This document shows positions 1,363-13,673 of a stretch of DNA of 29,156 nucleotides, piece after piece. The DNA lies in IMG/VR virus record IMGVR_UViG_2734482789_000006; one strand, written 5' to 3'. The notes beneath the pieces were generated by a model. That model was not told the origin of the DNA. It saw nothing but the letters and a program-made list of their open reading frames with translations, and made no database searches. Origin of the DNA: a virus (lineage: Duplodnaviria > Heunggongvirae > Uroviricota > Caudoviricetes). Made by a program: the position numbers and the translations under genes. Every line of letters starts with the position of its first letter. Positions within the stretch are counted from its first letter, which is position 1.

Positions 1363-3066
1363 TCAGGCAATTATATTCTGATACTTGCTCCGGGTCTGCC
1401 CGGCTTTCGTCGCCGTCTGGGTGAACGCGTCGGCATTAGTTGGCGTCCCAACGGTGGGGTGCGAATGGCTCGCGCATTGCTGTGCCAGTTCTGCCAGTAA
1501 ATCAATGGTATCCAACATCATGGTCAGGGCGTTGATACTCTCACTGCCAATATGGACAGTTGCCCCCATGACCTGCTGACCGCCAGCGGCCACTGATTTA
1601 CGCAGTGCGGCAATTTTCTCTGTCAGGCTTTCGCCAACCTCCACGGCTACAGCACCGCCCACTTTAGTGGACTGCTGTCCTGCTATGTCCGTTTCTTCGT
1701 TTCCTTCAATACTGGCCAGCCTGTTACCTTTCACCGCCTGGCTATAATCACCGGCACTTACCTGCTGGATGGCTCCGGCCAGCAATGTGGTGGTTCCCAG
1801 TACCGTGGTTTTATCCGTGGCTTTCACCGTGGTTTCACGGCTGACCAGTTCGCGCTGTTCCGTATCGGCTTTTACGGTTCGCGCCATCGATGTTTCACTG
1901 ATGGTCTGATCGGTCTGTCTTACCCAGTCTCCTGCCTGAGTCACCCGCTGGGAAACTTCTTCCCGCTGCTGCTGCAATTGCTCACCGGGTTTAACGTCCG
2001 GCAGGCTGGTACCATCCGGCAGCGTCTGCCTGATAAAGGGTTTATCCGGTCTGCCTCCCGTGAATGCAACCTCAACCAGCGTCCCTTCTGGCGGAAACTG
2101 AAACATACCTGAATCATTCCCGGCCATTGGCACCGGCAGCTGCACCGCTGAGTAAACAGGCGTCTGATTGTCCGGGTTTCCGTCTGCGTCAAGCAGCTGA
2201 ACGTCCACGGCGTAACGTGGCCGGAAGGGATCGGCAAAATTACCGCTTTTTACCGGCTCTGAATGCGCCACGACTCTGGCCATCTTTGGCAAATGAAGCC
2301 CGGATGCCAGTTCCGGGTAATGGCTTTCAATCTGCCGTTGTGCTGGTGTTTTCTGCAAAGGTTTACCCGTTGCGCGGTTTCTCGGCGTCCATGTGATCGC
2401 CATCGTGTCATTAGTCAGGTGAACTTTAGTCACGCGTTCACCGTTCATCTCCACCCCTGGCCGCATAGTCTGGATCATTGGTAATGTCACAGAGTTACCA
2501 CCAGCAGCCCCCTGGCTGAACTCTGAAGGGATTTCTACGGAACGACCGGCAAACAATGATTTTTCTGCGCCTCCGACGTAAAGCGAACCATCAGGCAACT
2601 GGTACCAGATGTAATCCTGGATACTGAACGCCCTGCCCAGATTGTTCAGCAACTGATAGCCGGTACCGTTATGGGTAAAATGTGGGATAGGGGTATCGCT
2701 GTACTCTGCATCAGGCACACTGACCGTGATCCCGCTGTTTTCTTCCAGCCAGCTGGCAACCTCGCGTAAAGTTGGATGTTGAAACGAACATGGCCACATC
2801 CTTTCAAACACACCTACCAGCTCACGAATGAACAGACGCTGAAAACCGTTTTCAGCGGGCTGCGATCGCTCCACATACCCCGTAAACCAGCGCAAAAGCA
2901 GATCGGTATACCCCACATCCAGCCGCACCAGTTTTCCGGTGTAATCGGTTGTTGTCTCTGCGGTGATGAAGCCCCGGCCGCAGCTGTTCAGCTCCAGTAC
3001 CAGACTAGCATCCACGAGGTGAACTTCATCCGTTGAAAGGTAAAGGCGTTTTACTGGTTTCATCAT
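1363..3066 (-). CDS. Large tail-operon protein, function unassigned (possibly baseplate hub/spike-like)
   Basis: 567-aa ORF, last gene of the tail operon, start overlapping the stop of the upstream gene. The C-terminal third is rich in Thr/Gln/Gly/Ala, as in spike or fibre proteins. GC content resembles the phage body. No motif I can name with confidence. Confidence 0.45.
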   Translation of the reverse strand: MMKPVKRLYLSTDEVHLVDASLVLELNSCGRGFITAETTTDYTGKLVRLDVGYTDLLLRWFTGYVERSQPAENGFQRLFIRELVGVFERMWPCSFQHPTLREVASWLEENSGITVSVPDAEYSDTPIPHFTHNGTGYQLLNNLGRAFSIQDYIWYQLPDGSLYVGGAEKSLFAGRSVEIPSEFSQGAAGGNSVTLPMIQTMRPGVEMNGERVTKVHLTNDTMAITWTPRNRATGKPLQKTPAQRQIESHYPELASGLHLPKMARVVAHSEPVKSGNFADPFRPRYAVDVQLLDADGNPDNQTPVYSAVQLPVPMAGNDSGMFQFPPEGTLVEVAFTGGRPDKPFIRQTLPDGTSLPDVKPGEQLQQQREEVSQRVTQAGDWVRQTDQTISETSMARTVKADTEQRELVSRETTVKATDKTTVLGTTTLLAGAIQQVSAGDYSQAVKGNRLASIEGNEETDIAGQQSTKVGGAVAVEVGESLTEKIAALRKSVAAGGQQVMGATVHIGSESINALTMMLDTIDLLAELAQQCASHSHPTVGTPTNADAFTQTATKAGQTRSKYQNIIA

Positions 3067-4885: not shown

Positions 4886-6459
4886 TATGCGAGTCTCACT
4901 ATGTAGTTAAATGCAATATTCTTAACGGTCGTTTCTGCGTTGCCCGACGCGGCGATGGTAATGGTGTGACTGTGTGCGCCAATTGCTACGGTATGAGAGT
5001 GAGCGCCAATACCTACGGTGTGATTGTGTGCGCCAATAGCTACGGTGTGTGCATGGTTTCCCGCCGAACTTGTAGTAGTCGCACCCTTATCCTGTCTGGG
5101 TACACCATAATCCGAACCGCCAGACTGCACACTAACGGCAAACCCGACAGTGTGCGTATGCGCCCCCGTTGTATTTGTCGTTTTCGTGCCATAGTCAAAC
5201 GTACTCGCCGTTTTAGTACCGTAATCAAACGAGGATGTTGATTTCGTCCCCAAATCGGTACTGGATGCACTGGCTGTGTGTGAGTGGGATTTATTGCCAT
5301 CATCTTCATAGGACAAAACTTCGCGGCCGTCTGGTTTCCCTTTGATTGTTCGGCGGCGCATGTCAGGAATAACACCCGACGGATACGCGATGGCCAGTAA
5401 AGGATATGCAGCCTTATCAAAAAATTGTCCCTGCATAATTGCCCACCCTGCAGGCGGGATATCCGTTGACCACGGAAGCGGCACACCAACCGGCAGAACA
5501 TCACTACGACTTAAAACCGCCAGTTCACCCAGTTCCAGACTTTTTCTGGCTTTCGCTTTGTCGTTAACATCAGCAAGGTTTGCATCCTTACGCAAAAAAT
5601 CGCTGCTGGCCTGCTGTTCTCCCAGGCTACCTTTTGGCCGTAGATCCGTGATGTTGCCATCCACATCAATGCTGGCCACAGCAAACACATAATGCTGAAC
5701 TCCGTTCTGAACGTAATCAGCAAGGTTTGCAGCCACCGTGATTTTGCTCTGCACATTCCAGACACTGGTCAGCGTCCCTGTCCAGCACACATCCAGCCAG
5801 ACTTTTACCGGCTTTGTCGTCACCGTAATATTCTGATTCGCAGCCAGTGACGTACGAAGTCCAGCCACATACCCCGTGCCTTTCGTGACAAAAAACTGAT
5901 TGCCGGTTTTGGCTACCAGATACCCGTTACCCAAAAACGCAGCCGCACCATAGATATCCATATTTTCAAGGCGCTGGCGCTCATCCATTCCGGCCATACG
6001 CGCGGTGAAATCAATCTGCCAGGTCTCAGCGGGCGTATTAATCCCGGTTTCCGTTTGTGCGCCGTTGTACTCCATCAGAAACGAGCGGGTCAGCACGTTC
6101 CCCTGTTGCCCTTCTTTTGTTTTCAGTTTCTGCTGTGATGGTGCATGGACAATCATTGCCAGCGTACCGCTGGCCTTATTGAGCAGACCGATCCAGTTAA
6201 AACTGAAATCACCCACATCTGCGCCCAGCACTACGGAATAAACCACCCCGTTTTCATTCACCACACCGGTGCGGGTAACAGATTGCCGGTGAACAATCTG
6301 TGCTGTCGGGGGCAACGCTTCATCGCGGTCAACAGGTGTATCCGGGTTTAAATCCGGCACACTGGCAAAAACAAATTCGTCCAGTAGTACCGGTTCACCC
6401 GTTGCACCCTGCTGTGCTTTCCAGTTTTCAAACGCCAGTGTGATGGCTGTCTGTGACAT
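4885..6459 (-). CDS. Tail fibre protein
   Basis: 524-aa protein with C-terminal tandem repeats of G-A-H-x-H-T-V-x-I and (S/T)FDYGTKT, sitting between the baseplate I-like gene and the assembly chaperone. Confidence 0.8.
4949..5056 (-). repeat. 27-bp imperfect tandem repeats (3-4 copies) inside the tail fibre gene
   Basis: Units gcgccaattgctacggtatgagagtga / gcgccaatacctacggtgtgattgtgt / gcgccaatagctacggtgtgtgcatgg at 4976-5056 plus a degenerate copy upstream; they encode the A-H-x-H-T-V-x-I-G repeats. Confidence 0.6.
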
Positions 6460-8288: not shown

Positions 8289-8560
8289 AGCCGCTTCTGA
8301 CTTTCTTCACTGATTTCCACCGTACCCGGCACAATGCGTTCATCATCTTCAATCAGTAATTCCATGCTGGTAAAAATATCCGCTCTCATTGTCGGGCTAC
8401 GTTCGGCAATTAATTCCGTCGCTAACCCACTTTCAATAATGGAATGAATAATGTCCTGCCCGATACTTTTTCGGTTATTACATAATTCAGGTTCATTACC
8501 GGTATTCAGAACAAAGTCACCGCCCTGAATCAGCAAATCGATATAAAGAACATCACTCAT
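8231..8560 (-). CDS. Small tail/baseplate protein (gpW/gp25-like position)
   Basis: About 109 aa from MSDVLYIDL, starting directly after the tape-measure stop and overlapping the J-like gene start. Assignment is by position only. Confidence 0.4.
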   Translation of the reverse strand: MSDVLYIDLLIQGGDFVLNTGNEPELCNNRKSIGQDIIHSIIESGLATELIAERSPTMRADIFTSMELLIEDDERIVPGTVEISEESQKRLWVTASTYDFGGISAQVDL

Positions 8561-10524
8561 GCGCCAAGCTCCTGCCATTCCATAAGCTGGGATGGAGAAA
8601 GTGCTTCTTTGGTATGGAAATGCACTTCACCAATTTTCCGGCTGTTATCGGTTACGGATTTACTGTTGCTGCTGATTGTTTTGCTGATACCACCTTTATC
8701 CACACCTTTTAAATCACCACCCGTTGACAGTGTATTTCCGGTTAATGGCTGCGTGGTTTCACTGACCAGTGAAATATCCACGCCGGGAATTTTATTCAGT
8801 TTCTGAACAATCCAGTTCCACGACTTAAGAAATCCCCCTTTGATTGACTTCCAGACATTATCAAACAGCGACATAATGCCGGAGGCCATCCCCTTTAATG
8901 CTTCAGACGGTGAAAATCCTGTCAGCAAAGAAATAAAGCTGTTCCATCCTTCACTGATATATTGCCAGGCTGAAACAAAGATCCCCGCCAGCCATTTCAC
9001 CACGGCGGCACATGTCTGGAAGGCTCCAGTATTCATCACCGCTGCTTTTATTGTGTCCCAGTGCTTAACCAGCAGATAACAACCGGCAACCAGTAGCGCA
9101 ATGGCACCAATCACAAGCAGGATCGGCCAGCTCATCAGGTTGATACCAATTCCGGCCATTATTGCGGCCATGCGTACCGCCAGTAACGCACCGCGCAAAA
9201 ACTTCAGCGTGGTATTCCAGGCGATTACCGCCATTTGCGCCAGCCAGACAGTGACAGTGTAGATTTTCGTAACCGCCGTTAACGCCACCCAGATCCCGCG
9301 CAATCCCATCATGATGAATCTGGATACCCCCATCACGATATTGGCCACCGCACCCACGGCGGCAAAGCTCAGGAGTGCCATCGACGCATAACCAATCACA
9401 CGGGCAATGTTAGGAAATAACTGCATCCAGCGGGCAAAGGTCTGCCCCATATCGGCCAGGCGATTCAGAACCGGATACAGCACCGGGATCAGCGTCAGCC
9501 CGATCACGGTCTGAATGGCTTTCAGGATTTGCACAAAGCGATCCCACGGCTTAACCATTTTTTGTGCCATTTCCTGGGTACGCTTCAGACCGTCCGCGCC
9601 GCCCAGTTCGGTGATGTTCCGCTGAAGTAACGCGACATTGCCGTAAAGCTGTTTAACCACTGCCGAACTGTCACCAAAGGCTGCATCCAGTTCCGCCTGG
9701 GCTTTCAGGTTCCCTTCAAGGCTTTTGCCATATTTGCCCTGCAACTTGATCAGCATTTCAGGCATGGACAGCATTTTGCCGGTGGAGTCAGTAAAGGACA
9801 GCCCCAGCTTTTTAGCGCCATCAATCGCACCGGTCATAAACCCTTCATAGGCGCTGCTGGCTTCCGTTCCCAGTGTCCGCTGAAGTTGCCCCAGAACGGC
9901 CAGCTGTTCATCCAGTCCCACGCCGTAGTTAGTCCCTACGCCGCGCGCACCTTCCATCAAATCCTTGATAGTGGCCATTTCTGTGCCAAAGGTTTTGCGC
10001 ATATAAACCATCTTGCCCGCCAGCTGCTCGGCAAATTCAACCTTGCCCAGTCTGGCGGCATCGGCGGAAAAGTTACCGAACATCTGCCCCATAAATTCCG
10101 CCGTGTCCGCCGCTGTGGACTTGAGCGCAAAAGCCAGGGTATTGGCGATTTTCGTCACCTTCGGCAGTTCATTACCCGTCAGTCCGGCAATGGAAGCGTT
10201 AATATTTTCCGTGGATTTAACGAACTCCACCGCGCTGGCACCATAGGTTGTACTAAAGCGCAAGGCATCACGCTGAACGGTCTTAAGCGCGGAATCATCA
10301 ATCCCTTTTGCGGCGGCATCATTCAGCGCGTCATACATTTCAATTGCTGGTGATAACGCGCCCTTGATCGCCATCCCGATACCTGCCAGCGCCACTGCAC
10401 CGCCGCCAATCTGCATAAAGGCCGCTTTTGATTTTTCCGCAAAGCCGGTGACGTTACCCTGCACCTGTTTTAACGGGCGGGATAATTTATCAATCAGGCT
10501 TAATGTAAAATCTAATTGTTTCAT
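8557..10524 (-). CDS. Tail tape measure protein
   Basis: 655 aa; helical N-terminal half, several hydrophobic segments in the C-terminal half; directly downstream of the chaperone frameshift cassette. Confidence 0.85.
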   Translation of the reverse strand: MKQLDFTLSLIDKLSRPLKQVQGNVTGFAEKSKAAFMQIGGGAVALAGIGMAIKGALSPAIEMYDALNDAAAKGIDDSALKTVQRDALRFSTTYGASAVEFVKSTENINASIAGLTGNELPKVTKIANTLAFALKSTAADTAEFMGQMFGNFSADAARLGKVEFAEQLAGKMVYMRKTFGTEMATIKDLMEGARGVGTNYGVGLDEQLAVLGQLQRTLGTEASSAYEGFMTGAIDGAKKLGLSFTDSTGKMLSMPEMLIKLQGKYGKSLEGNLKAQAELDAAFGDSSAVVKQLYGNVALLQRNITELGGADGLKRTQEMAQKMVKPWDRFVQILKAIQTVIGLTLIPVLYPVLNRLADMGQTFARWMQLFPNIARVIGYASMALLSFAAVGAVANIVMGVSRFIMMGLRGIWVALTAVTKIYTVTVWLAQMAVIAWNTTLKFLRGALLAVRMAAIMAGIGINLMSWPILLVIGAIALLVAGCYLLVKHWDTIKAAVMNTGAFQTCAAVVKWLAGIFVSAWQYISEGWNSFISLLTGFSPSEALKGMASGIMSLFDNVWKSIKGGFLKSWNWIVQKLNKIPGVDISLVSETTQPLTGNTLSTGGDLKGVDKGGISKTISSNSKSVTDNSRKIGEVHFHTKEALSPSQLMEWQELGA

Positions 10525-10721
10525 TCAGTGCCTTTAAATGCTTTTGCCACACCATTGGCCACGGCTATTCCCGTATATTCCCAGTGACGATTATCCAGCC
10601 AGATAGCGGCGGCGATATCATCAACGGAATCCTGACCATGCGGCAAATAATGACGGCGAAGAATTAAATATTGTTCGAGTCCATTTCTTTCGATTTCATG
10701 GACTCGCTTTGTCAGTTTTTT
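10521..10721 (-). other. Programmed -1 frameshift extension of the tail chaperone
   Basis: Slippery heptamer A-AAA-AAC (plus coordinates 10715-10721) is in the correct zero-frame register immediately before the chaperone stop. The -1 frame is then open for 65 codons and ends at a TGA (10521-10523) that overlaps the tape-measure ATG (10522-10524). Confidence 0.6.
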
Positions 10722-10972
10722 ACTTCAATTTCCAGTTCAGGCGCATAAATATCATTTACTTTGCCAACCAGTTGAAGTGCAGCCCCCGGACGCTTTAATA
10801 CTTCTGCCAGTGCTTCTTTACTTTCCGTTGCCACAATTCGCGTCAGATAGTTATGTGCCGGGGCAACTTTATTATCCATCGCCATTTCATTAATAAATTT
10901 GTTGTAGGCAGTCTGATTTGGCTCAAAAACAATATCAACACCACAAACACACAGTTTAATTTGTTCCATCAC
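10712..10972 (-). CDS. Tail assembly chaperone (zero-frame product)
   Basis: 86-aa ORF directly upstream of the tape measure gene, ending ...EIEVKN-stop on the slippery site. Confidence 0.65.
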   Translation of the reverse strand: MMEQIKLCVCGVDIVFEPNQTAYNKFINEMAMDNKVAPAHNYLTRIVATESKEALAEVLKRPGAALQLVGKVNDIYAPELEIEVKN

Positions 10973-11255
10973 TCATACTCTCTCTTAAATTAATTTCGTC
11001 CACTAACTGATTATGACGCGCAGCACACTGCCCATAAATTTCAGGATAAATTGTCAGTAATTCTGCTGCGTCTTTTCCTGTCGTACCGTTCAGGCGCGGC
11101 AGCTGCGTGGTGCATTTAGTTTTCAGGTTTTCCTGATAACGCACGTTCGGTACCGGCTGCGGCGCTGTTGTACATGCTGACAAACTCATCAGACAGACAA
11201 CGATTGGTAAAAACGGGCTTAAGTATTTCCGTGCGTATCTCTCGCGGTGCCACAT
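10956..11255 (-). CDS. o-spanin (Rz1-like outer-membrane lipoprotein)
   Basis: Basic n-region, hydrophobic core, LSAC lipobox, then a proline-rich mature part (CTTAPQPVPNV); starts inside the Rz-like gene in another frame and runs past its end. Confidence 0.6.
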   Translation of the reverse strand: MWHRERYARKYLSPFLPIVVCLMSLSACTTAPQPVPNVRYQENLKTKCTTQLPRLNGTTGKDAAELLTIYPEIYGQCAARHNQLVDEINLRESMSDGTN

Positions 11256-11454
11256 TTTTTAACGCCTCCAGTTTATCTTCCAGCACTCTGGCCGAATCAC
11301 TGGCAATACCCTGCATTGCTTTTCGCGATTCATTACCGGCCACCTGCGCCGCTGTATTGATTGCCAGCTCTAAGCTGTCACGCCGCCAGTCAGCGGTCAG
11401 CCAGCCCCAGACAAACGCCAGCGCCACCACAACCAGCCACTGCCCGCTGCTCAT
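11116..11454 (-). CDS. i-spanin (Rz-like)
   Basis: 112 aa with an N-terminal transmembrane segment (WLVVVALAFVWGWL) and a helical periplasmic part; start overlaps the endolysin stop by 1 nt. Confidence 0.65.
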   Translation of the reverse strand: MSSGQWLVVVALAFVWGWLTADWRRDSLELAINTAAQVAGNESRKAMQGIASDSARVLEDKLEALKNVAPREIRTEILKPVFTNRCLSDEFVSMYNSAAAGTERALSGKPEN

Positions 11455-11795
11455 CAGCGCACCCCGTTATGTTCCAGACTGAAATGATTGCCATCCGGTC
11501 TGGATTTGAAGCGTCCGCCCCAGGCACCACCCAGTGATTCCCAGTATTCCCCCAGAGGCAGATAATCTTCTGTGCGGGTTTTGTACTGACCGTTCACGAA
11601 CAGATTGAAATCCACCGCCAACCGCTGGGTGTGCAGACTGTTAGAAATGCCGCTGCCTTTCTTCGCATTCAGCGCGGCCTGTTCTGGTGTACGGTACGCT
11701 TCACCAAACGTCAGCCACATGCCATTTGCATTGGCATATTGAATTAACAACGCAATCATTGATGTAAACCGTTGCTGTTTTTCACTCAGGGTCAT
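11454..11795 (-). CDS. Endolysin, zinc metallopeptidase (peptidase M15 / LAS type)
   Basis: SLHTQRLAVD (H-x6-D) and DGNHF motifs typical of L-alanyl-D-glutamate peptidase endolysins. Start taken at MTLSEKQQ (ATG 11793-11795); the listed ORF extends upstream to 11912. Confidence 0.7.
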   Translation of the reverse strand: MTLSEKQQRFTSMIALLIQYANANGMWLTFGEAYRTPEQAALNAKKGSGISNSLHTQRLAVDFNLFVNGQYKTRTEDYLPLGEYWESLGGAWGGRFKSRPDGNHFSLEHNGVR

Positions 11796-12084
11796 TTGTC
11801 TTGCTCCCGTTCTGCTTTTCCGCTGCACGTCTGCGCAGCCACACTTCCACCGCTTGATAACCGGCAATCCCCAGCGCCGCCCCCAGCCCCTGAATGGCCA
11901 GCGGGCTGGCATCCGGGATCTGAATCAGCACCGCCCCGGCCACCACTGAAACCAGACTGCCCAGGATCACGCGACCGGCAAACAGGCGCGGCGTGATGGG
12001 GTCATTACTGGTCAGCACATTGCCGATGGCAATCAGTGCGCCAATGATCAGCAGTGAATAAAGGCTCTTTTCATGCTCCTGCAT
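11782..12084 (-). CDS. Holin (putative)
   Basis: 100 aa, two hydrophobic transmembrane segments and a charged C-terminus (RRRAAEKQNGSKTNDPE), immediately upstream of the endolysin. Confidence 0.6.
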   Translation of the reverse strand: MQEHEKSLYSLLIIGALIAIGNVLTSNDPITPRLFAGRVILGSLVSVVAGAVLIQIPDASPLAIQGLGAALGIAGYQAVEVWLRRRAAEKQNGSKTNDPE

Positions 12085-12093
12085 CCCTGCCCC

Positions 12094-12549
12094 TTATCCG
12101 ATCAGGTTTTCTGTGGCTTCCGCTTCCAGATACGGCACACCGTTGATGTTGACGAATTTCGGACTGGTCACGAAATATTTGATTTTGTGCGTGGTCACAC
12201 CGCCACCTTTCGGATCAATATCCAGCAGGTTGCTGACCTGCAATTTATTGCCGAACGTCTCCACCTTCATTTCTTCGCTACTGGCTTTGGCATAGAAAAG
12301 AAAATCAAGTGGGGGAAGCCCACGCCATGAACCCGCTGCACGGGCTTTGGCTGTCAGCACCTGAAGTGTTTTTGAACTGACTTCAATTTCCCCCTCAGCA
12401 GCAACATCGCCATCCACATACCCGTCAGGGACGCCACGCGTCTGGGCGGCAGCGCTGTTATCCGTAATATCGAGCGTGATTTTCTCGATATGGATCAGAT
12501 CGCCGTCCATATAGGTGTCAAACGACATACCCGAAATACGTTTAGTCAT
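12094..12549 (-). CDS. Tail tube protein (putative)
   Basis: 151 aa directly downstream of the sheath gene with overlapping stop/start; canonical sheath-tube order. Confidence 0.55.
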   Translation of the reverse strand: MTKRISGMSFDTYMDGDLIHIEKITLDITDNSAAAQTRGVPDGYVDGDVAAEGEIEVSSKTLQVLTAKARAAGSWRGLPPLDFLFYAKASSEEMKVETFGNKLQVSNLLDIDPKGGGVTTHKIKYFVTSPKFVNINGVPYLEAEATENLIG

Positions 12550-13673
12550 GCTGTGGCCTCCAGACTCGCATCCAGTAACAGACTGATGGTGATTTGCAGC
12601 GGCACTTCCCAGGTGCGTACCACAATGTAAATATCCACCGCCTTTTTGTTTTTCCAGACAATGGTCACATCACCATCCTGCGGCGGCTTCACCTCACCCG
12701 GAAATGACACACCGTTAATGCTGGCCGCAGTGGACATTTCACGCAGTGGACGGGCAAACAGTGTCTGATGTGCGGCGATACTTCCCGGCGTACTGTTCAG
12801 CGAGCGATCCGCGATTTTGCTGATAGCCAGCAGACGAACACGGCGGGCAGCTTTATCCGCAACGCGCAGGGTTTCAATCGACTGGTAATCGCCGCCCTCA
12901 ACATCCAGCGTGCGGCCATCTGCCCAGTAAAAGCCGTCATAATCCGGGTACCACATCGGCACACTGAAACGCTGTGCTTCAAGCGCCTGAAGTGTGGCCA
13001 GTTCCAGCACTTCTCCAGTGCCATCAACCGGCATTTCATCACTGCCCAGATTCATCAGAGCACCGGTTTTAACCCGCGCCGGACTGTCAGCAATGGTTAC
13101 CGCACGGCTACACAGGCGACCAGCCAGCACGCCCGGTTCATTTCCCCACAGGCGGGGAACCAGCTGCACCGCCTTTTCTGCAATGCCATCCTGAAGGGTG
13201 GCCATGCGTACCAGATAATCCGCCTGGGCTTCTTCGTCCTGCATTCCCTGCGCAGCCAGGATGAACCACACCCAGCGGCCATACTTTGAAATCAGGGTGG
13301 ATCGTAACGTCACGGCCTGATTTACCTGCGCTTTAGCGGTCACATCGTCAGACAGCACCACGCCTTCCACAGAGCACACTACCTGCGCGGCCAGAACCGC
13401 TTTCACCCAGGCATCTGCCTCCGCGTCAGCTGGCAGGACGTGAATGAATCCCCACCAGTTCTGGCCAGCGTTCGCCAGCGCAGCCAGAACATCATTTTTC
13501 AGCGGACTGGCTTCCTCACCCAGCAGTGAATCAAAATCACTCTGGGCATTCACCGCCAGCGTTTTCCCCACATTTTTGGTACCCGTACCGATAAACAGCA
13601 GTGTGCGTTCCACCTCATTGGTTTCACCCAGCAGCTGATTTACCTGGTTTACGGTCACAATTGGCCAGGTCAT
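12546..13673 (-). CDS. Tail sheath protein (putative, not P2 FI-like)
   Basis: 375 aa, first large gene of the tail module, followed by the tube gene; no visible resemblance to P2 FI as I recall it. Confidence 0.6.
   Translation of the reverse strand: MTWPIVTVNQVNQLLGETNEVERTLLFIGTGTKNVGKTLAVNAQSDFDSLLGEEASPLKNDVLAALANAGQNWWGFIHVLPADAEADAWVKAVLAAQVVCSVEGVVLSDDVTAKAQVNQAVTLRSTLISKYGRWVWFILAAQGMQDEEAQADYLVRMATLQDGIAEKAVQLVPRLWGNEPGVLAGRLCSRAVTIADSPARVKTGALMNLGSDEMPVDGTGEVLELATLQALEAQRFSVPMWYPDYDGFYWADGRTLDVEGGDYQSIETLRVADKAARRVRLLAISKIADRSLNSTPGSIAAHQTLFARPLREMSTAASINGVSFPGEVKPPQDGDVTIVWKNKKAVDIYIVVRTWEVPLQITISLLLDASLEATA

Follow-up and report, generated by a model that had tools for sequence, protein, structure and literature searches.

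Frameshifts in described tail chaperone genes

The G/GT arrangement of phage lambda (Levin, Hendrix & Casjens 1993; Xu, Hendrix & Duda 2004, as summarised in PMC5009743) comprises two overlapping ORFs just 5' of the tape-measure gene, the second of which lies in the −1 frame and lacks a start of its own; a short chaperone and a C-terminally extended form are produced, neither of which is expected in virions. The locus analysed here appears to have the same organization; it lies in a 29,156-nt stretch of viral DNA that is called the window throughout. The lambda heptamer is G_GGA_AAG, whereas that of the window is A_AAA_AAC. The window also differs from lambda in that its proteins belong to the families Phage_TAC_10 and DUF6890, its phage is contractile-tailed and its 0-frame stop abuts the heptamer; moreover, the ESSI-2 clade carries a conserved downstream hairpin. 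Such downstream structures have been reported to be rare for phage tail frameshifts (PMC3091744).

Like the window phage, P2 belongs to the Peduoviridae. Its chaperone genes occupy the same position relative to the tape-measure gene (T in P2), encode products that are similar in size (91 and 142 aa in P2 against 85 and 149 aa in the window), and have an extension whose end overlaps the start of the tape-measure gene and which constitutes a Pfam family of its own, Phage_P2_GpE in P2. A frameshift yielding P2 gpE and gpE+E' has been reported by Christie et al. (2002), and P2-like phages are reportedly discussed there and by Xu et al. (2004). In the P2 RefSeq record (NC_001895) the two reading frames of E/E+E' are joined into one CDS, and the site is labelled '−1 translational frameshift'. 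On the other hand, the P2 slip site is T_TTT_TTG (GGTTTTTTG) and is followed by 6 more 0-frame codons before the stop, and the P2 chaperone gene stands directly after the tube gene FII whereas the window has a lysis cassette in between. BLASTP between P2 E/E' and the window proteins gave no match at E<=100, hhalign assigned probabilities of 0.1% to the chaperone part and 0.4% to the extension, and the window proteins did not match Phage_TAC_7 or Phage_P2_GpE at E<=0.01, both of which are matched by P2 E+E'. A preliminary description of this locus had likened it to lambda G/GT and to P2 E/E+E'; the likeness holds for architecture and mechanism, but not for a sequence relation to P2, against which stand the other Pfam families, the T_TTT_TTG site and the lack of detectable similarity.

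True homologues are found in HP1, where orf26 and its −1 ORF match Phage_TAC_10 and DUF6890, and also in HP2, K139, phiO18P, F108 and Pseudoalteromonas phage ACA2; in the last of these, gp36/gp36a were deposited as a 'tail assembly chaperone with programmed frameshift', a joined CDS at the homologous A-run. HP1, K139 and phiO18P share the GTA/CTA-AAA-AAC-stop junction, and HP1, phiO18P and phi3 share the gene order tube, lysis genes, chaperone, tape measure. The HP1-type relatives differ from the window in protein sequence (35-60% identity), HP1 and the other distant members lack the hairpin of the ESSI-2 clade, and ACA2 and phi3 carry A_AAA_AAA and A_AAA_AAG with the 0-frame stop 7-8 codons downstream.

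Outside phage tails, the sites of E. coli dnaX (A_AAA_AAG) and IS1 insA-insB' (A_AAA_AAC) likewise consist of an A-rich heptamer of lysine codons, read in E. coli by a single tRNA-Lys. The dnaX frameshift combines A_AAA_AAG with an upstream SD-like element and a downstream hairpin (PMC5009743). The ESSI-2 clade resembles dnaX in having a downstream stem-loop at typical spacing, but the window lineage lacks a conserved upstream SD-like stimulator and the Z base of its heptamer is C, not G. The purpose of the shift differs as well: it would set a chaperone ratio in the window, whereas it yields the gamma subunit in dnaX and serves transposase expression in IS1.

The chaperone–tape-measure junction in the window

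All elements of the junction lie on the minus strand, and coordinates are positions of the whole window:

12546..13673, minus strand: tail sheath gene (DUF2586)
12094..12549, minus strand: tail tube gene (Phage_HP1_Orf24)
10956..12084, minus strand: lysis cassette of holin, M15 endolysin, i-spanin and o-spanin (Phage_holin_3_2 and Peptidase_M15_4 by Pfam; Rz-like spanin by PHROG)
10712..10969, minus strand: tail assembly chaperone gene (0 frame; short 'G-like' product), 85 aa from the ATG at 10969
10721..10715, minus strand: slippery heptamer AAAAAAC in X_XXY_YYZ register, immediately 5' of the 0-frame stop
10714..10712, minus strand: chaperone stop TGA
10521..10715, minus strand: −1 frame extension ('T-like' part), 64 sense codons plus TGA
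10676..10706, minus strand: candidate stimulatory RNA hairpin, CGAGUCCAU-(13 nt loop)-AUGGACUCG, beginning 8 nt 3' of the heptamer
8557..10524, minus strand: tape measure protein gene, 655 aa (PhageMin_Tail, E=4.8e-22; phrog_28 'tail length tape measure protein', E=6e-100)

The gene order is sheath, tube, four-gene lysis cassette, chaperone, −1 ORF and tape measure, and RefSeq phage records label the sheath and tube homologues as tail sheath and 'tail protein'. The overlapping pair of chaperone and −1 ORF is located between the tube gene and the tape-measure gene, as in the G/GT type; the lysis cassette is context and lies outside the recoding signal. The chaperone 3' end reads ...GAA GTA AAA AAC TGA, as the preliminary description had it from GTA onward, and the heptamer begins on the third base of GTA, which gives A_AAA_AAC in the 0 frame. 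The −1 frame, entered at C10715, is indeed open, although over 64 sense codons and not the 65 first counted, a figure that is reached only by including the stop. It closes at TGA 10523..10521, which shares bases with the tape-measure ATG at 10524..10522 (ATGA, read from the sequence), an overlap that had been correctly noted. Counted from a GTG at 10972, one codon upstream of the ATG at 10969, the chaperone ORF spans 10712..10972, but the ATG is the likely start and gives 85 aa. The predicted fusion has 149 aa with the ATG as start and 150 aa with the GTG, which agrees with the earlier estimate of roughly 150 aa.

The identity of the upstream ORF as a tail assembly chaperone, already proposed from the sequence, is supported by its Pfam family, the matches of its predicted fold and its position directly upstream of the tape-measure gene. 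It matches PF10963 Phage_TAC_10 (E=6.3e-37, 126.1 bits, cut-off 25.7) as well as phrog_1214, and the 258-nt CDS appears in RefSeq as 'putative phage tail assembly chaperone'. The chaperone part and the extension were modelled separately with AlphaFold (AF2). The chaperone model reached a pLDDT of 92.7 and has the uncharacterised structure 3FGX as its best PDB match (TM 0.74), while its top BFVD matches are annotated tail assembly chaperones, with probabilities of 0.97-1.0, TMq of 0.56-0.68 and weak E-values of 0.01-0.1. NCBIfam has no model for either the chaperone or the extension.

Taken alone, this one sequence could show a heptamer and an open −1 frame by chance. The window contains 12 copies of AAAAAAC where 7.9 are expected, a count that 14 of 100 shuffles reach; an open run of 64 codons has a probability of about 0.09 from the stop-codon frequency, and 32% of the −1 frames after ORF ends in the window run for at least 64 codons. 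These single-sequence statistics were not used as evidence for a frameshift, and the significance of the pattern lies entirely in the comparison with related sequences.

Conservation of the slippery heptamer

The comparison indicates that the chaperone gene of this ESSI-2/HP1-type prophage (Peduoviridae) undergoes programmed −1 ribosomal frameshifting, a reading to which a probability of about 0.9 is given. Related loci (n=126) were located by tblastn; a strict peptide motif (AYN.F[IV]N) had missed 38 loci. AAAAAAC stands directly 5' of the stop in 124 of the 126, and in 125 the −1 frame runs on for 62-64 codons before a stop, which bears out the conservation of both elements in relatives that had been suggested as a check. 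A Kistimonas locus, 41% identical, has AAAAAAA in place of AAAAAAC. The site is spelt as GTA, CTA or ATA followed by AAA and AAC, whereas elsewhere in the chaperone gene GTA accounts for 16% of Val, CTA for 1% of Leu, ATA for 2% of Ile and AAC for 42% of Asn codons. The Asn codon of the site is AAC in 112 of 113 distinct versions, although AAT is commoner in the rest of the gene. The base before AAAAAC remains A even where Val is replaced by Leu or Ile, and it is because this base is held as A that the rare codons GTA, CTA and ATA occur at the site.

The pattern extends well beyond close relatives. With the fusion as query, tblastn found 59 phage records in which at least 80% of the query was covered, the matches lying in two frames, and the heptamer and open −1 frame persist in HP1-type phages down to about 35-40% identity. 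An in-register A_AAA_AAN is retained in six distant phages (HP1, K139, phiO18P, yong1, ACA2 and phi3). Among these, ACA2 and phi3 keep GTA AAA AAA/G in register although their 0-frame stop comes later, and the slip site therefore appears to be pinned to the heptamer.

The site is also homopolymeric, with A6 in the window and A7 in ACA2, yong1 and Kistimonas, and RNA polymerase might instead add one A within the A6 run and fuse the two ORFs in some of the mRNAs. Bacterial runs known to slip productively mostly have 8-9 nt or more, and six A's are short for this purpose. Transcriptional slippage would, moreover, impose neither the X_XXY_YYZ register, which is always kept, nor the C after the run, present in 112 of 113 versions, and the conserved hairpin lies 8 nt downstream, at a spacing typical of a ribosomal stimulator. 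Slippage of this kind at A/T runs is an established route in bacteria and IS elements (a topic of PMC5009743), but it is considered very unlikely here.

The −1 extension

The extension matches Pfam PF21830 DUF6890 (E=1.8e-23 on the fusion, 82.4 bits, cut-off 23.6) and phrog_7050; the adjoining 0 and −1 frames score above the gathering thresholds of Phage_TAC_10 and DUF6890, respectively. Column entropies at codon positions 1, 2 and 3 of the −1 frame are 0.38, 0.28 and 1.03 from the first codon on, the third-position wobble starts at the first codon past the heptamer, and the product has invariant Trp, Leu, Asp and Asn residues; nucleotide divergence reaches 29% within the ESSI-2 clade alone. 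Third-position wobble and invariant residues together indicate purifying selection on the extension protein. The −1 frame shows protein-coding selection starting at the junction and lacks an initiation signal of its own: 48 of the 124 AAAAAAC-bearing loci have the non-start codon CTA at the junction, no start codon is conserved in the −1 frame (the first ATG, GTG or TTG ranges from codon 3 to codon 56 or is absent, and lies beyond the conserved domain in most versions), and no SD-like motif was found before the candidate starts of the window's −1 ORF.

With these observations it becomes extremely unlikely that DUF6890 is an independent small gene that starts at the CTG overlapping the chaperone stop (CTGA) or at a TTG or GTG further in, with termination-reinitiation as a conceivable route and neither frameshift nor fusion. 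Such a gene is what current annotation describes: PGAP calls a 64-aa 'DUF6890 family protein' CDS beginning at the junction CTG, the protein database holds 37 clusters of stand-alone DUF6890, and the window's −1 ORF has a TTG at codon 24. However, coding periodicity is present from codon 1, upstream of every candidate start, and an independent gene leaves unexplained both the synonymous-site conservation of the heptamer and the in-register heptamer of ACA2 and phi3, where the −1 ORF overlaps the chaperone 3' end. The annotated DUF6890 lengths (45-71 aa) are also inconsistent, which suggests ad hoc start calls. On the sequence evidence, DUF6890 is the frameshift extension of Phage_TAC_10 chaperones rather than a stand-alone protein initiated at CTG. 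A chance pattern or non-functional remnant, in which the heptamer simply encodes a conserved C-terminal Val-Lys-Asn and the −1 frame is untranslated spacer, would fit the statistically unexceptional heptamer count and open frame of the window by itself, but it is effectively refuted by the conservation of the open −1 frame in 125 of 126 loci with its wobble and invariant residues, by a heptamer codon choice that opposes the gene's own usage, by the −1 coding periodicity and by the Pfam match of the −1 ORF.

The AF2 model of the extension consists of three helices (pLDDT 84). A fold search with it gave no meaningful match (best E 0.86), and for this reason the extension lacks structural support for a tube-binding role.

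Downstream hairpin and other candidate stimulators

In the ESSI-2 clade the heptamer is followed by a hairpin with a stem of 8-9 bp, scored as a 9-bp stem after an 8-nt spacer. It has a dG of −14 kcal/mol and a z-score of −3.25, none of 200 shuffles was equally stable, and no other 40-nt window of the region is as stable in this clade (−13.9 versus a mean of −5.7). Across 44 distinct clade sequences, 92.7% of cells are paired, and sliding the partners leaves no more than 39%; pair 23-39, which is AU in 26 of the sequences, GC in 17 and GU in one, requires at least 5 state changes on the NJ tree, a sign of independent compensatory switches. Both pairing and covariation exceed the two controls, and the compensatory substitutions couple a synonymous with a non-synonymous position. 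In its arms the hairpin uses rare codons (CGA 8.6%, GGA 15%, CTC 3.5%). The conservation could be partly protein-level, as the stem sits in coding sequence.

The covarying stem-loop 8 nt downstream is a property of the ESSI-2 clade only. A family-wide downstream structure was considered and rejected: z-scores and a positional scan of the distant lineages show no consistent enrichment, and a GC hairpin, at 4-5 nt, is only sometimes present there. Since it is confined to one clade, the hairpin is not essential to the family-wide mechanism; within the ESSI-2 clade the predicted structure probably pauses the ribosome and raises slippage. As to other stimulators, 79 of 90 distinct versions contain no GGAG, GAGG or AGGA within −22..−4 that could act as an upstream SD-like element, and Rfam has no family at the junction or the hairpin, its best match (E 0.26) being an unrelated sRNA on the other strand.

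A more elaborate and doubtful possibility is that the ESSI-2 clade evolved a composite stimulator, atypical for phage tail chaperone frameshifts, made of the covarying hairpin at +8 nt and the stop abutting the heptamer. For ribosomes that had not slipped in tandem decoding and were pausing at the stop, second-chance E/P-site slippage would then compete with the release factor, the ratio would be tuned by termination efficiency and RNA stability, perhaps also by host physiology, and DUF6890 would be the tube-recruiting 'T domain' of HP1-type myophages.

Proposed mechanism

In the programmed −1 frameshift proposed here, the majority of ribosomes would make the 85-aa chaperone and stop at TGA, and a minority would slip back one nucleotide with tRNA-Lys and tRNA-Asn on AAA-AAC, both of which would re-pair on AAA-AAA. 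Reading would continue as CTG-ACA-... in the −1 frame for 64 further codons, giving a long form of 149 aa with the DUF6890 domain as its C-terminal part, and would terminate at the TGA overlapping the tape-measure start. If the two forms act as lambda gpG/gpGT do, the N-terminal chaperone domain common to both would coat the tape-measure protein, the tail tube protein would be brought in by the extension, and the efficiency of frameshifting would determine a fixed ratio of short to long form. The stop codon adjoining the heptamer may add to slippage. We infer the occurrence of slippage, its efficiency, the roles of both protein parts and the stimulation by hairpin and stop; a literature search found no report of a fusion product by mass spectrometry, reporter assay or western blot for any Phage_TAC_10 phage. 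Atkins et al. (2016, PMC5009743) describe the function of lambda G/GT and A_AAA_AAC as a known −1 shift heptamer. According to the same source, E. coli shifts far less readily on A_AAA_AAC than on A_AAA_AAG, and the efficiency may for this reason be low here, although tail chaperones do use low efficiency.

Annotation and significance

The extension is treated inconsistently in the databases. In RefSeq Enterobacterales genomes it is either unannotated or called as a stand-alone 'DUF6890 family protein' with an invented start, at CTG or internal, and the database entries have arbitrary lengths. Among six distant records inspected, the frameshift is annotated only in that of ACA2; in the records of HP1, K139, phi3, phiO18P and yong1 the −1 ORF is unannotated or given as a separate small CDS, and GenBank record U24159 of HP1 has an unannotated 190-nt 'gap' at this position.

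The main value of the analysis is the correction of this annotation. Once DUF6890 is recognised as the −1 extension of Phage_TAC_10 chaperones, a role is assigned to what had been a domain of unknown function and an inconsistently called gene is corrected, and the A_AAA_AAC heptamer followed directly by a stop offers a well-conserved training case for frameshift predictors. The clade-specific hairpin provides a compact natural system for the contribution of a downstream structure to a low-efficiency bacterial frameshift and, if the composite stimulator were real, the ratio of short to long chaperone might respond to host physiology. As far as sequence can tell, the window site is confirmed as a genuine but ordinary case of the known tailed-phage chaperone frameshift, and its biology is the expected one: nearly all long-tailed phages make a chaperone together with a frameshift-extended chaperone.

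Anatomy of the Predicted Frameshift Junction

The minus strand carries the genes of the chaperone region. The tail assembly chaperone ORF opens with a GTG and ends GAA-GTA-AAA-AAC-TGA; an ATG at 10969, one codon inside, gives the 85-aa protein as annotated by RefSeq. The slippery heptamer starts at the third base of GTA and is read A_AAA_AAC, i.e., in the X_XXY_YYZ register that tandem -1 slippage requires, directly before the chaperone stop as the preliminary description had claimed. The -1 frame begins at C10715 with CTG-ACA-AAG and stays open for 64 sense codons (the 65 counted earlier for this open frame include the stop) up to a TGA at 10523..10521, which, as also described, overlaps the tape-measure ATG (10524..10522) as ATGA (10524..10521). 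The fusion predicted from the sequence is 149 aa long, agreeing with the roughly 150 aa anticipated.

Features of the chaperone region in the window
10712..10972, minus strand, chaperone ORF with GTG start
10712..10969, minus strand, tail assembly chaperone, Pfam Phage_TAC_10 (E 6e-37)
10721..10715, minus strand, heptamer AAAAAAC
10521..10715, minus strand, -1 extension, Pfam DUF6890 / phrog_7050 (E 1.8e-23)
8557..10524, minus strand, tape-measure protein, PhageMin_Tail; phrog_28 (E 6e-100)
10956..12084, minus strand, lysis cassette (holin, M15 endolysin, i-spanin, o-spanin)
12094..12549, minus strand, tube, Phage_HP1_Orf24
12546..13673, minus strand, sheath, DUF2586
10706..10676, minus strand, 9-bp hairpin CGAGUCCAU-13 nt-AUGGACUCG, beginning 8 nt 3' of the heptamer

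The remaining genes comprise P2-type capsid, scaffold, terminase and portal, gpR and gpS homologues, the gpA replication protein and an integrase; the window is a complete Peduoviridae prophage, 97–98% identical to Escherichia phages ESSI2_ev129, ev040 and ev015, and prophages 97–98% identical to it occur in 39 of 5,426 complete E. coli genomes. A complete lysis cassette between the tube and chaperone genes splits the usual tube-chaperone-tape-measure block, an arrangement shared with HP1, phiO18P and phi3 and not with P2. Within it the i- and o-spanin genes overlap, and the o-spanin ORF (10956..11255, minus strand, 99 aa) encodes a charged n-region, a hydrophobic stretch and a lipobox (LSAC, residues 25–28). 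The RefSeq o-spanin CDS of a 98%-identical prophage (2057..2245 of the locus from NZ_CP043414.1) opens only at Val38 (GTG), past the lipobox, and its start is probably mis-called. In Yersinia phage vB_YenM_324 (4755..5894 of its locus) and Salmonella phage SI7 the gene at the DUF2586 sheath position is labeled 'topoisomerase' or 'topoisomerase IA', evidently a propagated mis-annotation.

AlphaFold modeled the chaperone with high confidence (pLDDT 92.7), and most of the top viral fold matches carry the annotation tail assembly chaperone (probability 0.97–1.0, TMq 0.56–0.68); several are long forms of 170–220 aa, which we infer to be frameshift-extended products. Among PDB entries the uncharacterised 3FGX (TM 0.74) matches best. 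The extension is modeled as three helices (pLDDT 84), and a fold search with this model returned no informative match.

Conservation of the Heptamer and the -1 Frame

In the window sequence by itself, neither the heptamer nor the open frame exceeds chance: AAAAAAC occurs 12 times against 7.9 expected (at least 12 in 14 of 100 shuffles), a 64-codon open run has P of about 0.09 from stop-codon frequency, and about a third of the -1 frames after ORF ends are as long or longer. The other 11 copies lie at 481, 3179, 3837, 14347, 17742, 18349, 21625, 23470 and 24944 (minus strand, where most genes lie; 9 of 11) and at 5890 and 19301 (plus strand). The case for frameshifting depends on comparison with relatives, for which 126 loci were collected (the window, 41 bacterial-genome loci, 80 viral contigs and 4 annotated records). 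AAAAAAC directly precedes the stop in 124 of them (TGA 76, TAA 42, TAG 6) and the -1 frame spans 62–64 codons in 125, so that the conservation proposed earlier as a check is borne out and coincidence becomes extremely unlikely. The Kistimonas locus, the most distant (41% identity), has AAAAAAA-TAA. The single broken chaperone frame is that of Enterobacter sp. EA-1 (CP025776.1; tblastn match 256 nt), with no heptamer before the stop and a -1 run of 25 codons; prophage decay or a sequencing indel may account for it. The chaperone on a Bacillota-binned MAG contig (JAEWTL010000126.1, 20 kb) is 99% identical to that of the window's enterobacterial prophage, and the contig is most likely mis-binned or contaminating.

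Across 113 distinct nucleotide versions the site codons are GTA, CTA or ATA, then AAA, then AAC (AAA in one), while elsewhere in the chaperone gene Val is encoded by GTA in 16% of cases, Leu by CTA in 1%, Ile by ATA in 2% and Asn by AAC in 42%. Since the A before AAAAAC is retained despite the amino-acid change, the constraint acts at the nucleotide level. Transcriptional slippage in the A6 run would also join the two frames and would leave VKK-LTK at the junction instead of the VKN-LTK of ribosomal slippage; we regard it as quite unlikely.

Independent initiation of DUF6890 is less likely still. Column entropy along the -1 frame (74 distinct 64-codon versions) is 0.38 bits at the first codon position, 0.28 at the second and 1.03 at the third, a periodicity that starts at the first codon after the heptamer. 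The position of the first ATG, GTG or TTG varies between codons 3 and 56, some versions have none, and in most versions it lies at codon 48 or later, beyond the conserved domain. No Shine-Dalgarno motif precedes the window's candidate starts. PGAP (1622..1816 of the locus from NZ_CP043414.1) does annotate a separate 64-aa 'DUF6890 family protein' starting at the junction CTG; this codon is CTA, which cannot initiate, in 48 loci. Phage RefSeq records leave a gap of roughly 190 nt where the extension is, and all 37 protein-database clusters of DUF6890 (P0121–P0157) are stand-alone, their inconsistent lengths (45–71 aa) reflecting ad hoc start calls.

Relation to HP1-Type Phages and Known Systems

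With the fusion as tblastn query, 59 phage records matched along 80% or more of it, each time in two pieces lying in two frames. In each of six distant homologues among these, a -1 ORF of 67–75 codons ends just before the tape-measure start.

Junctions in HP1-type phages
HP1, GTA-AAA-AAC-TAA, 0-frame stop adjacent
K139, CTA-AAA-AAC-TAA, 0-frame stop adjacent
phiO18P, GTA-AAA-AAC-TGA, 0-frame stop adjacent
yong1, GTA-AAA-AAA-TAG, 0-frame stop adjacent
ACA2, GTA-AAA-AAA-TCG..., 0-frame stop 8 codons further downstream
phi3, GTA-AAA-AAG-CGC..., 0-frame stop 7 codons further downstream

The displaced stops of ACA2 and phi3 show that the heptamer is kept as a slip site and not for the adjoining stop; the ACA2 GenBank record already has a joined CDS, 'tail assembly chaperone with programmed frameshift'. 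By its sequence, the pair belongs to the HP1-type Phage_TAC_10 + DUF6890 pair. The likeness to lambda G/GT and P2 E/E+E' drawn in the preliminary description holds for the way the pair works and does not extend to the P2 sequence family: P2 E+E' is Phage_TAC_7 + Phage_P2_GpE, its slip site is T_TTT_TTG instead of A_AAA_AAC, and BLASTP and hhalign found no similarity to E/E'.

Candidate Stimulators

The hairpin downstream of the heptamer (ΔG = −14 kcal/mol, z −3.25) was matched in stability by 0 of 200 shuffles, and in a positional scan of the ESSI-2 clade the whole region folds most stably in windows beginning 2–6 nt past the heptamer (−13.9 vs. a mean of −5.7 kcal/mol). In 44 distinct sequences of the ESSI-2 clade, the close relatives (chaperone at least 77% identical), 92.7% of hairpin cells are paired vs. 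at most 39% with slid partners, and the covariation score is above 500 of 500 shuffles, a control that overstates significance as the sequences are related. One partner of pair 23-39 (A-U 26, G-C 17, G-U 1) is the middle base of -1 codon 6 (His/Gln vs. Arg) and the other is the wobble position of Asn codon 11, a pairing thus not explained by protein constraint; an NJ tree from which the stem columns had been left out requires at least five state changes at this pair, a count of independent changes that phage recombination could inflate. At a second pair G-C gives way to A-U as Val is replaced by Ile and Leu by Phe. Where only one side of a pair in the 8-bp core has changed, the result is G·U in all but one instance across 84 sequences, and the arms hold almost fixed rare codons (CGA 8.6% of Arg, GTC 14% of Val, GGA 15% of Gly, CTC 3.5% of Leu). 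The hairpin probably stimulates slippage in this clade, and the adjacent stop may, speculatively, add a pause.

Lineages below about 72% identity lack this hairpin; some have a different short GC-rich one 4–5 nt after the heptamer (+4..+20 nt in Ewingella, Buttiauxella and related loci L020, L021, L023 and L029), e.g., GGCGCG-GGUU-CGCGCC, or GCCGUG-GUCA-CACGGC in Kistimonas (L045). These are suggestive of convergent stimulators, a reading unsupported by z-scores and the positional scan, which gave no consistent enrichment in the distant Phage_TAC_10 lineages. No conserved SD-like element was found upstream of the heptamer, and an Rfam search at the junction and hairpin returned no family.

Proposed Mechanism and Significance

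The observation of the frameshift site is confirmed and its interpretation supported. In the best-supported mechanism, tRNA-Lys and tRNA-Asn slip back in tandem by one nucleotide on A_AAA_AAC, which would yield a minority long form beside the 85-aa chaperone. With lambda gpG/gpGT as the model for the roles of the parts (PMC5009743), both forms would bind the tape-measure protein through their common N-terminal domain, the long form would use its DUF6890 extension to recruit the tube protein, and the short-to-long ratio would be fixed by how efficiently ribosomes shift frame. The searchable literature does not mention DUF6890 or the frameshift site of this lineage. The recoding site is a textbook case that annotation of this lineage misses or gets wrong, and its analysis yields, as by-products, a putative function of DUF6890 and a covarying hairpin, specific to one clade, as candidate stimulator.
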